From assembly GCF_016026235.1 (NCBI RefSeq), contig NZ_CP065613.1: a DNA stretch of 64,000 bases; one strand, given 5' to 3'. Source of the stretch: Escherichia coli. Its GTDB lineage: Bacteria > Pseudomonadota > Gammaproteobacteria > Enterobacterales > Enterobacteriaceae. Shown here piece after piece: positions 36,735 to 61,308 of the stretch (within the stretch, counting starts at the first letter, position 1; each line of letters starts with the position of its first letter). The notes below the pieces were generated by a model. That model saw only the letters and a list, made by a program, of their open reading frames with translations, was not told the origin of the DNA and searched no databases. The position numbers and the translations under genes are program-made.

Positions 36735-38226
<1,492 letters not shown>

Positions 38227-50862: not shown

Positions 50863-52461
50863 ATGCGTAAAACAGTGGCTTTTGGCTTTGTCGGAACGGT
50901 GCTGGATTATGCCGGGCGCGGCAGTCAGCGCTGGTCGAAATGGCGTCCGACACTCTGTTTATGCCAGCAAGAATCGTTGGTCATCGATCGACTGGAATTA
51001 TTGCATGACGCCCGCTCGCGCTCGCTATTTGAAACGCTTAAACGCGATATCGCCAGCGTTTCGCCAGAAACAGAAGTGGTGAGCGTTGAGATTGAACTGC
51101 ATAACCCGTGGGATTTCGAAGAGGTTTACGCTTGCCTGCATGATTTCGCCCGTGGTTACGAGTTTCAGCCAGAAAAAGAAGACTATTTAATTCACATTAC
51201 CACCGGCACCCACGTCGCGCAGATTTGCTGGTTTCTGCTGGCGGAAGCGCGTTACCTGCCCGCCCGGCTGATACAATCTTCACCTCCGCGCAAAAAAGAA
51301 CAGCCGCGCGGCGCAGGTGAAGTGACGATTATCGATCTCGATTTAAGCCGTTATAACGCCATCGCCAGCCGCTTTGCCGAGGAACGCCAGCAAACGCTTG
51401 ATTTTCTTAAGTCCGGCATTGCCACGCGTAACCCCCACTTCAACCGCATGATTGAGCAGATCGAAAAAGTGGCGATCAAATCCCGCGCGCCGATTCTGCT
51501 TAACGGTCCAACCGGCGCGGGCAAGTCATTTCTGGCGCGACGCATCTTCGAGTTAAAACAGGCGCGGCATCAGTTTAGCGGCGCGTTTGTGGAAGTGAAC
51601 TGCGCCACCCTGCGCGGCGATACCGCCATGTCGACGCTGTTTGGTCATGTAAAAGGCGCGTTTACCGGGGCGCGGGAATCTCGTGAAGGTTTATTACGCA
51701 GCGCCAACGGCGGAATGTTGTTTCTTGATGAGATTGGCGAACTGGGCGCAGACGAACAGGCAATGCTGCTTAAAGCCATTGAAGAAAAAACCTTTTATCC
51801 GTTTGGCGGCGATCGCCAGGTGAGCAGTGATTTTCAGCTTATCGCCGGAACGGTGCGTGATTTGCGCCAGCTGGTTGCCGAAGGAAAATTTCGCGAAGAC
51901 CTGTACGCGCGGATCAATCTCTGGACCTTCACCCTGCCGGGGCTGCGCCAGCGCCAGGAAGATATTGAACCTAACCTGGATTATGAAGTGGAGCGCCACG
52001 CCTCACTCACTGGCGACAGCGTGCGTTTTAACACCGAAGCGCGGCGTGCCTGGCTGGCCTTTGCGACATCTCCCCAGGCAACATGGCGCGGTAACTTTCG
52101 CGAGCTTTCTGCCAGCGTCACGCGGATGGCTACCTTTGCCACTAGCGGACGCATCACTCTGGACGTGGTTGAAGATGAGATAAACCGTCTGCGCTATAAC
52201 TGGCAGGAGAGTCGCCCCTCCGCGCTTACGCAGCTACTGGGCGCAGAGGCAGAAAACATCGATCTCTTCGACCGTATGCAACTGGAACACGTTATCGCTA
52301 TCTGCCGCCAGGCAAAGTCGCTTTCCGCAGCCGGACGCCAGCTTTTTGACGTTTCGCGCCAGGGCAAAGCCAGCGTCAATGACGCGGATCGGCTACGCAA
52401 ATACCTGGCGCGTTTTGGTCTGACGTGGGAAGCATTGCAGGATCAGCACAGCTCCAGTTGA
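50863..52461 (+). CDS. rtcR: sigma54-dependent transcriptional activator of rtcBA
   Basis: 532-aa ORF with an AAA+ sigma54-interaction domain ([16 protein letters not shown]..., GAFTGA loop). Confidence 0.95.
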
Positions 52462-53201
52462 ATATGGTGGTCCGTCAGCACCTGCATCACGCTTACTGGC
52501 GGCGGGGCGTCGGTGTAGACGGCATCTACCATGCTGATGCTGCCCATATTGACCATCGCGTTACGGCCAAATTTCGAGTGATCGACAACCAGCATAACGT
52601 GGCGCGAGTTCTCAATAATGGCGCGTTTGGTGCGAACTTCGTGGTAATCGAACTCCAGCAGCGAGCCGTCGCTATCGATGCCGCTTATCCCCAGAATGCC
52701 GAAATCAAGGCGGAACTGGGAGATAAAATCGAGCGTCGCTTCGCCAATGATCCCGCCATCGCGGCTGCGTAATTCGCCACCGGCGAGAATAATACGGAAA
52801 TCCTATTTTACCATCAGCGTGTTAGCAACGTTAAGATTGTTGGTGACAATGCGCAAATTGCTGTGATTGAGCAGCGCGTGCGCCACCGCTTCCGGCGTGG
52901 TGCCGATATCGATAAACAGCGTCGAGCCATTGGGGATTTGCTCCGCCACTTTGCGGGCGATGCGCTCTTTTTCTTCGGTCTGGGTGGCTTTACGATCGTG
53001 CCACGGCGTGTTAACCGAACTGGAAGGCAGCGCCGCACCGCCATGATGGCGCAGGATCAGGTTTTGCTCCGCCAGCTCATTGAGGTCGCGGCGAATAGTC
53101 TGCGGGCTGACGGAGAAGTGCTCCACCAGCTCCTCGGTACTGACATAACCCTGCTGTTTAACCAGTTCGATAATACCGTTGTGACGTTGTGTTTGTTTCA
53201 T
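52443..53201 (-). pseudogene. glpR: glpR (DeoR-family repressor of the glp regulon) interrupted by an in-frame TAG at codon 133
   Basis: From ATG 53199-53201: MKQTQRHNGIIELVKQQGYVSTEEL...NLNVANTLMVK, then TAG (52803-52805), then same-frame DFRIILAGGELRSRDGGIIGE... to the stop at 52443. That is 252 codons in all; I recall intact GlpR reading ...MVKEDFRII..., so Glu is replaced by a stop. Confidence 0.8.
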
Positions 53202-53217: not shown

Positions 53218-54060
<843 letters not shown>

Positions 54061-54092: not shown

Positions 54093-54497
<405 letters not shown>

Positions 54498-54557: not shown

Positions 54558-54575
54558 ATGTTCGATAACGAACAT
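54558..54575. promoter_or_regulatory. GlpR operator in the glpE/glpD divergent control region
   Basis: ATGTTCGATAACGAACAT is a perfect palindrome matching the GlpR operator half-site pattern TGTTCGAT/ATCGAACA, 34 bp upstream of the glpD ATG. Confidence 0.75.
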
Positions 54576-54608: not shown

Positions 54609-56114
54609 ATGGAAACCAAAGATCTGATTGTGATAGGTGGCGGCATCAATGGTGCTGGTATCGCGGCAGACGCCGCTGGACGCGGTTTATCCGTGCTGAT
54701 GCTGGAGGCGCAGGATCTCGCTTGCGCGACCTCTTCCGCCAGTTCAAAACTCATTCACGGTGGCCTGCGCTACCTTGAGCACTATGAATTCCGCCTGGTC
54801 AGCGAGGCGCTGGCTGAACGTGAAGTGCTGCTGAAAATGGCCCCGCATATCGCCTTCCCGATGCGTTTTCGCCTGCCACATCGTCCGCATCTGCGCCCGG
54901 CGTGGATGATTCGCATTGGTCTGTTTATGTACGATCATCTGGGTAAACGCACCAGCCTGCCGGGATCAACTGGTTTGCGTTTTGGCGCAAATTCAGTGTT
55001 AAAACCGGAAATTAAGCGCGGATTCGAATATTCCGACTGTTGGGTAGACGATGCCCGTCTGGTGCTCGCCAACACCCAGATGGTGGTGCGTAAAGGCGGC
55101 GAAGTGCTTACTCGTACTCGTGCTACTTCTGCTCGTCGCGAAAACGGCCTGTGGATTGTGGAAGCGGAAGATATCGATACCGGCAAAAAATATAGCTGGC
55201 AAGCGCGCGGCCTGGTTAACGCCACCGGCCCGTGGGTGAAACAGTTCTTCGACGACGGGATGCATCTGCCTTCGCCTTATGGCATTCGCCTGATCAAAGG
55301 CAGCCATATTGTGGTGCCGCGCGTGCATACCCAGAAGCAAGCCTACATTCTGCAAAACGAAGATAAACGTATTGTGTTCGTGATCCCGTGGATGGACGAG
55401 TTTTCCATCATCGGCACTACCGATGTCGAGTACAAAGGCGATCCGAAAGCGGTGAAGATTGAAGAGAGTGAAATCAATTACCTGCTGAATGTGTATAACA
55501 CGCACTTTAAAAAGCAGTTAAGCCGTGACGATATCGTCTGGACCTACTCCGGTGTGCGTCCGCTGTGTGATGATGAGTCCGACTCGCCGCAGGCTATTAC
55601 CCGTGATTACACCCTTGATATTCATGATGAAAATGGCAAAGCACCGCTGCTGTCGGTATTCGGCGGTAAGCTGACCACCTACCGAAAACTGGCGGAACAT
55701 GCGCTGGAAAAACTAACGCCGTATTATCAGGGTATTGGCCCGGCATGGACGAAAGAGAGCGTGCTACCGGGTGGCGCCATCGAGGGCGACCGCGACGATT
55801 ACGCAGCTCGTCTGCGCCGTCGCTATCCATTCCTGACTGAATCGCTGGCGCGTCATTACGCACGCACTTACGGCAGCAACAGCGAGCTGCTGCTCGGCAA
55901 TGCGGGGGCGATAAGCGACCTCGGGGAGGATTTCGGTCATGAGTTCTACGAAGCGGAACTGAAATACCTGGTGGATCACGAATGGGTCCGCCGCACCGAC
56001 GATGCCCTTTGGCGTCGCACAAAACAAGGCATGTGGCTGAATGCGGATCAACAATCTCGTGTGAGTCAGTGGCTGGTGGAATATACGCAGCAGAAGTTGT
56101 CGCTGGCGTCGTAA
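54609..56114 (+). CDS. glpD: aerobic sn-glycerol-3-phosphate dehydrogenase (FAD)
   Basis: Track ORF trimmed to ATG at 54609 (METKDLIVIGGGINGAGIAADAAGRGL..., 501 aa) with an FAD-binding GxGxxG. Confidence 0.97.
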   Translation: METKDLIVIGGGINGAGIAADAAGRGLSVLMLEAQDLACATSSASSKLIHGGLRYLEHYEFRLVSEALAEREVLLKMAPHIAFPMRFRLPHRPHLRPAWMIRIGLFMYDHLGKRTSLPGSTGLRFGANSVLKPEIKRGFEYSDCWVDDARLVLANTQMVVRKGGEVLTRTRATSARRENGLWIVEAEDIDTGKKYSWQARGLVNATGPWVKQFFDDGMHLPSPYGIRLIKGSHIVVPRVHTQKQAYILQNEDKRIVFVIPWMDEFSIIGTTDVEYKGDPKAVKIEESEINYLLNVYNTHFKKQLSRDDIVWTYSGVRPLCDDESDSPQAITRDYTLDIHDENGKAPLLSVFGGKLTTYRKLAEHALEKLTPYYQGIGPAWTKESVLPGGAIEGDRDDYAARLRRRYPFLTESLARHYARTYGSNSELLLGNAGAISDLGEDFGHEFYEAELKYLVDHEWVRRTDDALWRRTKQGMWLNADQQSRVSQWLVEYTQQKLSLAS

Positions 56115-59882: not shown

Positions 59883-61308
59883 TAATGCCAGTCAGTTAAG
59901 CAACTGACTGGCTCTTTTTCGGGGCTGTGGGGTATTTCCAGGGCCTCTCCTTTACCACTCTCGGGAAGGCCCTTCCCCTTCTCGTCGGTAATTTCACAAG
60001 TTGTCCCATACTTGCAAGATCGCGCATCAGCTCCGGTATACGTCCCGGTGAAGCGCCCTGCAATGTCATCAGCATTCTCATCACCATTCCGCATGATTCT
60101 GAGAAACTCAGTTGATTCGGCCAGTAACCTTTCAGATGTTCCGCCATTTTAATCATCTGATATCTCACCAGATTATAAGCCAGTAAGACACCCCACAGCT
60201 CTTGCTCCACAAGCTCCGGCTTTTTACTTCTCAGCGTCAGCCTGCTCAGTTGCATCGTCTGTTTTATCTCCCTGTATCCCAGTTCGATTTCCCAGCGATG
60301 ACTGTACAGATCCGCCATTTCTCCTCCGGGGAAGCGCATGGCGTCCGTCATCGACGTCAGCAGATGGCAGACTTTTCCTTTGCGCGTCACGGTCAGCAGG
60401 CGGGCTGTCACTTCATTTCCCAGTCCCGGCCACTTTTTTCGTGCCTGCGGGCTGGTTTTCAGCTTCACCAGATGATCGCCTTTACCCAGTTTTCTGAGCT
60501 CTTCATATTGCGCTCCCTTTCTGAGAGGTATCATCCAGTGGCGGTGTTCTCCCGCCAGGCTCCAGGCATTTAACAGTCCCAGTGAGTAATAACCTTTATC
60601 CATTAACGTCAGAGTGTTATCGCCGGTTTGTTCTATAAGTTGCTCAGCAAGCTCATTTTCGCTGTTCTTCATCGTGCCGAAGGCTGCAGCCGTCAGCAGA
60701 TGGCTGGTCAGTTCCATCTGGCAGACCATTTTGACCTGCGGGTAGAGCGCCGGGTTCCCGGCATGTGTCTGGCGGGGGAAGGCTGCATCGTTCTCTGGTG
60801 TATCCGGTGTGCGCCAGAACACACCATCGATGGCCAGCAGGGTCAGGCCGCACCAGTGCGGATGCGGCGTGGCGTTATGCCAGAGCTGCGCTGTTTTCGT
60901 GAACACGCGGCGGACAGCCTCACTTCCCAGGCGCTGGCGGGCCTGAATAACGGCACTGGGGGCAACGAAGGGGCGATTGCCCGGCAGCATGATGTCCAGG
61001 CGATTCACAATCTGGTGAAGAGGTTCTTTACGCTCAAGCGCCATGCCAACAATACACCAGACCATCATTTCGAGGGGAAGACGGCGCTTGCGTAGCGTTA
61101 CAGTACCTGATTCGGCAAGGCAACGAGAGATGAGTTCGGGGTCGAGGTAATCCCCCAGAGAAGTCAGTGGGTTACGCAGAGAATCGTAACGGGATACCAG
61201 ATCAAGAGCCTGTCCAATGTGCATAAAAAAATCCGGAAACAAGTGAGCGTTTCCGGATTCTTACACAGCCACTGGATCGGTCAACTGATCCTTAACTGAT
61301 CGGCATTA
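59883..61308 (-). mobile_element. IS4: complete IS4 insertion sequence (1426 bp)
   Basis: Terminal 18-bp imperfect inverted repeats TAATGCCAGTCAGTTAAG (left) and TAATGCCGATCAGTTAAG (right, reverse complement), 16 of 18 matching; one transposase ORF inside; flanked by a perfect 12-bp direct repeat; 1426 bp equals the canonical IS4 length. Confidence 0.95.
59896..61224 (-). CDS. insG: IS4 transposase (DDE)
   Basis: Track ORF 59896..61242 trimmed to [48 protein letters not shown]..., 442 aa, recognised as IS4 transposase InsG. Confidence 0.93.

Follow-up and report, generated by a model that had tools for sequence, protein, structure and literature searches.

GlpR binds tandem operators as an oligomer, and glycerol-3-phosphate releases it from them; in repressors of the DeoR family, the C-terminal domain supplies both effector binding and oligomerisation. 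Defective glpR alleles are in general a known and ordinary phenomenon. For the C600 lineage, PMC2763269, citing Holtman 2001, describes a Gly55Ala (G55A) substitution that gives constitutive glp expression with catabolite repression kept. In the same paper, laboratory alleles such as Gly55Ala and glpR200 (Holtman, Thurlkill & Pettigrew 2001) appear as unselected or unnoticed repressor defects with constitutive glp expression. An MG1655 stock variant (Freddolino 2012) had derepressed glp operons, again with catabolite repression kept, according to PMC6918082. During growth on glycerol, GlpR is already relieved by its inducer, and evolution on this substrate converges on glpK, crr and cyaA rather than on glpR (PMC7382830). 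Mutations in glpR have also been recorded by Frazao et al. 2022 during the evolution of Escherichia coli in the mouse gut (PMC9509342).

The sequence analysed here, a stretch of 64,000 nucleotides of E. coli DNA (64 kb, hereafter the window), carries a glpR allele interrupted by a nonsense codon. Very probably, this allele is a genuine and very recent GAG-to-TAG change in a single tip of an enteroinvasive E. coli (EIEC) O143:H26 clone, and it would leave the strain glpR-null. The codon-133 GAG-to-TAG allele itself appears to be undescribed. The parts of the gene are as follows.

52443 to 53201, minus strand: glpR (759 nt, 252 codons plus TGA), broken by an in-frame amber, as read from its translation
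52803 to 52805, minus strand: amber codon 133 (TAG; ancestral GAG, Glu), with the mutated base at 52805, where the plus strand has A and relatives have C
52806 to 53201, minus strand: the stretch still translated, encoding 132 aa: HTH and linker, followed by ~59 residues from the start of the sensor domain
52443 to 52802, minus strand: untranslated remnant, codons 134-252 plus the stop, with no further changes relative to intact relatives

Translation from 53201 down to 52443 gives 132 residues (MKQTQ...NTLMVK), a stop, another 119 in-frame residues and then the normal TGA; on the plus strand, the amber reads CTA. The preliminary description had placed an amber at glpR codon 133, and its peptide (...TLMVK*DFRIILAGGELRS), coordinates and codon number are all correct. 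It had also called the gene otherwise full length and in frame, which the translation confirms, and had taken TAG to replace a Glu codon, in agreement with the GAG present at codon 133 in relatives. With an in-frame stop inside a conserved domain and a sense codon at the same position in close relatives, this is a nonsense allele. The window gene shares 99.9% identity with the gene annotated as a DeoR/GlpR regulator in strain FDAARGOS_943 and 99.6% with its counterpart in O157:H7 Sakai, and the allele is closest to those of O157:H7 and O55:H7. Of 5,426 complete E. coli genomes, 5,425 have a glpR match of at least 90% identity, in every case chromosomal.

The comparison with K-12 MG1655 shows a common target reached by different lesions. 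In both strains, the same gene (b3423 in MG1655) in the same operon context bears a loss-of-function lesion and is otherwise intact. However, MG1655 belongs to phylogroup A, has GAA at codon 133 and lacks one base at nt 151 (codon 51), whereas the window, from a phylogroup E EIEC background, has a G-to-T nonsense change in codon 133. In NC_000913.3, glpR is annotated as a pseudogene of 758 nt; the window gene has 759 nt, with a C at nt 151, and differs from the K-12 gene at 14 positions plus the 1-bp indel. The earlier suggestion that the amber is distinct from the MG1655 frameshift allele is therefore upheld. The laboratory alleles of Holtman 2001 differ from it as well, being, as summarised in PMC2763269, missense or other lesions in K-12 derivatives, while the window allele is a nonsense allele in an EIEC strain.

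The order of the surrounding genes matches the annotated loci of FDAARGOS_943, Sakai and MG1655, with glpE-glpG-glpR in one operon, glpD divergent from it and rtcR convergent.

50863 to 52461, plus strand: rtcR, convergent with glpR, the two 3' ends overlapping by 19 bp
53218 to 54048, minus strand: glpG (rhomboid protease), intact, 276 aa, upstream of glpR in glpEGR
54093 to 54419, minus strand: glpE (rhodanese), first gene of glpEGR
54558 to 54575, no strand assigned: perfect 18-bp palindrome ATGTTCGATAACGAACAT, a candidate GlpR operator, 34 bp upstream of the glpD ATG
54609 to 56114, plus strand: glpD, intact, 501 aa, the GlpR target beside the operon

Because glpR ends the glpEGR operon and no gene lies downstream of it, a polar effect of the amber is not expected. 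No site in the 64 kb other than the palindrome upstream of glpD comes within 3 mismatches of the GlpR operator consensus, which the palindrome matches; 0.03 such sites would be expected by chance. GlpD itself carries a derived A156T substitution (window 55074, codon 156), which is clone-wide, is present as the exact protein on 25 contigs and predates the glpR amber. In FDAARGOS_943, glpG has a CAG-to-TAG change, Q44* (window-equivalent 53917-53919), just upstream of glpR, and in run ERR3372538 the glpG call is shortened (177 aa). The related lineages of the window and of FDAARGOS_943 thus have one nonsense mutation each in glpEGR. Internal promoters are reported for glpR.

Sequence identity indicates that the strain belongs to the EIEC O143:H26 / 4608-58-like clone of phylogroup E. 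Positions 7-21095 of the window are 100% identical over 21,089 bp to JTCO01000039.1, and JTCO01 is the assembly of 4608-58, an EIEC strain of serotype O143:H26 and phylogroup E that comes from the Walter Reed collection (PMC4319576). Among complete genomes, that of FDAARGOS_943 is the nearest, a sister genome with 99.95% identity and 33 substitutions in about 60 kb. Transitions account for 31 of these 33 substitutions, and the glpR amber is among only two or three transversions. When the substitutions are polarised with Sakai, 17 of the 21 derived on the window lineage are GC-to-AT transitions, and about half are non-synonymous. The maltose and glycogen genes hold a cluster of derived missense changes (malT G463D, malP T135M and A158V, glgP P576S).

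An IS4 copy of 1,426 bp lies at 59883-61308, with a 448-aa transposase on the minus strand and a 12-bp target duplication, GACCCTTTGGCC. Its neighbours are glgP and a PstS-like gene, the latter starting 95 bp downstream of the insertion. GCA_001907395.1 has the IS4 copy too, and GCA_018228945.1 and FDAARGOS_943 lack it. Three other insertions, IS1, IS5 and IS2, interrupt genes in the homologous region of FDAARGOS_943, where IS2 lies inside the PstS-like gene. The affinity of the glpR allele to O157:H7 and O55:H7, the IS4 copy of the window and the insertions of FDAARGOS_943 all fit the EIEC 4608-58 identity. This is a young pathogenic clone that is gathering mildly deleterious changes, nonsense mutations and IS insertions, and not a classical laboratory lineage. 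Shigella dysenteriae, which the IS elements and the phylogroup E affinity might bring to mind, was rejected: the proteins all bear the label E. coli, and the clone is EIEC O143:H26.

A second amber is found in yhfW (phosphopentomutase-like), where TGG has become TAG at window 2044-2046 on the minus strand and splits the gene into ORFs of 132 aa and 249 aa; the match of the first length to truncated GlpR is coincidental. The yhfW amber is common to EIEC 4608-58 (JTCO01) and must therefore be older than the glpR amber, while yhfW of FDAARGOS_943 is broken by IS5 instead. Another departure from most E. coli concerns gntX (37579-38226), which encodes 215 aa in the window and in FDAARGOS_943 as against 227 aa; at its N-terminus, a different or lost start codon is possible.

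The ancestral state of codon 133 was read from relatives at several distances. FDAARGOS_943, O157:H7 Sakai and the same-clone assemblies all have GAG, and K-12 has GAA. As judged from these alignments, the change is a G-to-T substitution at the first position of codon 133, corresponding to C-to-A on the plus strand at 52805. The allele comparison with related strains that the preliminary description had proposed thus gives GAG in the relatives and TAG as the derived state. Members of the same clone were fetched through proteins that carry derived substitutions of the window (glpD A156T, malP T135M/A158V, aroB S311P/E342K, gntX R73Q, glgP P576S), each found on 11-58 public E. coli contigs. GCA_001907545.1, aligned with window 32676-55069, differs from it only at 52805 in 22,394 bp. 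The same base is the sole difference in 7.5 kb of GCA_018228945.1 and in about 3.1-3.4 kb of GCA_021506395.1 and GCA_012752895.1. Compared with these intact same-clone relatives, no secondary changes were found 3' of the glpR stop. A difference of one base with nothing altered beyond it shows that the amber is very recent and private to one tip of the clone.

The amber itself is also seen in other public data. The Logan assembly of ERR3372598 has a 54,711-bp contig, recorded for 2 samples, that matches the window at 100% identity over the 6,399 bp surrounding glpR, including the TAG; the exact 132-aa product is called on it. The second sample is probably SRR13627086, judged by a contig whose length and span are the same. 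ERR3372598 does not match the runs of the Dutch IBESS study of Shigella/EIEC, which are numbered ERR33310xx (PMC7011524). Among the 10 places listed for the 132-aa product, TAG occurs only in ERR3372598. Elsewhere, TAG at codon 133 is absent from the 668 complete RefSeq E. coli genomes that share the local background, and TAA is absent from 1,872 B1-like and 1,461 A-like complete RefSeq genomes, the short queries on codon 133 leaving aside about 1,400 complete genomes with other local backgrounds. A 40-mer bearing the TAG has 0 matches in the GTDB species-representative genomes, to which the source genome does not belong.

Other lesions have arisen in the same part of the gene. TAA is found at codon 133 (G397T) in SRR18429019, which is B1-like, and in DRR090524 and ERZ23869444, which are both K-12-like, while GCA_900448875.1 has a 10-bp deletion at glpR nt 399-408 that starts in codon 133. 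All four cut the product at the same place as in the window. However, their backgrounds are only 97-98% identical to the window, and their ancestral codon is GAA where that of the window is GAG. The different backgrounds and the GAA ancestry indicate independent events and separate alleles. The gathering of lesions at glpR nt 397-408 could reflect chance, given how they were ascertained, or a local hotspot.

Two larger sets of apparent truncations were discarded. The 132-aa product is called on 107 contigs, and this could be mistaken for a widespread allele, but most of these contigs simply break off within codon 133, where the third base varies between GAG and GAA (ends in AAAAGA|). An antisense ORF of 102 aa, which appears in gene calls once glpR is broken, occurs in 164 collection blocks that could pass for disruptions of glpR in gut metagenomes; their lesions are scaffold gaps of 100 N, and the 10-bp deletion of GCA_900448875.1 is the sole real lesion among the cases with this ORF. 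Other shortened forms of GlpR exist, including a 185-aa form labelled Shigella flexneri on 33 contigs and a 167-aa form from NCTC-type complete genomes, whose tail diverges past residue 146 and looks like an insertion junction.

To locate the stop within the protein, Pfam domains were placed on the read-through GlpR sequence.

53019 to 53186, minus strand: HTH_DeoR region (residues 6-61), retained (Pfam PF08220, E=4.3e-26)
52509 to 52982, minus strand: DeoRC sensor and oligomerisation region (residues 74-231), of which residues 133-231 are untranslated (PF00455, E=8.7e-56)

About 63% of the DeoRC domain is lost, and about 59 of its roughly 158 residues are left. This bears out the earlier prediction that the HTH would be kept and most of the C-terminal domain would be gone. 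The only solved relative detected by sequence is the C-terminal domain of DeoR (7L6L), which aligns to residues 69-239. Past the amber, the first in-frame start codon is Met203, which has no obvious ribosome-binding site. Since a restart could occur no earlier than Met203, and without such a site, a functional C-terminal fragment is unlikely.

With most of the effector and oligomerisation domain missing, we infer that the product is a null repressor. Translation would stop after Lys132, and the 132-aa fragment would be expected to misfold or, failing that, not to assemble into the oligomer that binds glp operators. The result would be a glpR-null strain that expresses glpD, glpFKX, glpTQ and glpABC without inducer while keeping cAMP-CRP catabolite control. 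A constitutive, still catabolite-repressed glp regulon would be the most likely outcome by this analysis; derepression is to be expected because the published defective alleles are constitutive and because the sensor domain is lost here.

Could the base be wrong, or the stop harmless? An error of sequencing or assembly at 52805 in the source assembly of the window might be suspected, given that relatives otherwise identical to the window differ at this single base. Yet the same base stands in the separate short-read assembly recorded for two samples, which makes an artefact unlikely, and a substitution such as this, unlike a homopolymer indel, is not typical of long-read errors. If the source assembly used those reads, the ERR/SRR support cannot count as wholly independent of the DNA preparation, but it is still support at the level of reads, and we regard an error as exceedingly improbable. 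A real stop might also be ineffective or fall short of a null, either through read-through by a suppressor tRNA or because the 132-aa fragment still represses, possibly in a non-inducible manner. The HTH domain is wholly kept, and the fragment that bears it could retain some DNA binding; the window also holds the second amber in yhfW. A suppressor would have to be encoded elsewhere in the genome, since the 64-kb window contains no tRNA genes. Against repression by the fragment stands the loss of most of the domain for effector binding and oligomerisation. The yhfW amber is no pointer to suppression, because it is older and is shared with relatives whose glpR is intact. Amber suppressors are rare in natural E. 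coli isolates. Both ways of escaping the stop are, taken together, highly improbable, and a genuine stop in a glpR-null strain is by far the better reading.

Among the origins considered for the amber, the likeliest is an unselected or weakly selected tip mutation that arose in the host or in culture, perhaps during passage in a culture collection. The preliminary description had proposed that the amber may mark a domesticated or glycerol-selected lineage. Defective glpR is indeed common in laboratory E. coli, as the C600-derived G55A allele and the MG1655 stock variant illustrate (PMC2763269, PMC6918082). The clone includes the old collection strain 4608-58, and the occurrence of the amber contig in two sequencing runs would fit one strain shared between laboratories. 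However, the background is a pathogenic EIEC clone and not one of the K-12, B, C or W type that would be expected of a laboratory lineage. All other clone members read have GAG at codon 133, in DNA that does not differ in any other respect, and the amber is thus the mark of a single tip and not of a lineage. In addition, ALE on glycerol finds its targets outside glpR (PMC7382830), and since glpR is also mutated in vivo during colonisation of the mouse gut (PMC9509342), the laboratory is not the only setting in which it is lost. Other loci where domestication lesions occur, for example rpoS, rph and the rfb cluster, lie outside the 64-kb window. The proposal is thus not sustained, and domestication or glycerol selection of a lineage marked by the amber seems unlikely. 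Host-associated selection, in which constitutive glycerol/G3P catabolism is favoured in the gut or in host cells and glpR (or glpEGR) is a recurrent target, is rather more doubtful again. In its favour, selection acted on glpR in mouse guts, both in resident E. coli and in invaders (PMC9509342); FDAARGOS_943 has a nonsense mutation of its own, glpG Q44*, just upstream in the same operon; and codon 133 has been hit independently by TAA in B1-like and K-12-like backgrounds and by the 10-bp deletion of GCA_900448875.1. The mouse-gut mutations resemble the window allele in that the same gene is altered outside the setting of laboratory media; they come from experimental evolution, whereas nothing seen here ties the window allele to selection. 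The recurrences at codon 133 were found by searching for that exact product length, and with sequenced E. coli numbering in the hundreds of thousands, a few matches at any one site would be expected even if selection played no part. That two of three nonsense mutations in 60 kb should lie in a single 1.9-kb operon has a chance probability of roughly 6%, which is neither significant nor compelling. Moreover, the amber has not spread within the clone, and glpG Q44* need not lower glpR expression. It is very doubtful that glpR or glpEGR is a recurrent target of inactivation in invasive (EIEC/Shigella-like) lineages in particular, where constitutive glycerol/G3P catabolism might aid growth in the gut or cytosol; the hints in this direction are the window amber, glpG Q44* in FDAARGOS_943 and the independent lesions at glpR nt 397-408.

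The allele leaves the knowledge of GlpR and of the glp regulon unchanged, and its first use lies in strain bookkeeping: glp expression in this EIEC strain is probably constitutive, which would set it apart from relatives that are identical in other respects. For users of the strain in metabolic, persistence or infection work, this is a warning about its physiology. TAG and GAG on identical flanking DNA also form a natural one-SNP pair for studying the fitness effect of glpR loss in invasive E. coli.
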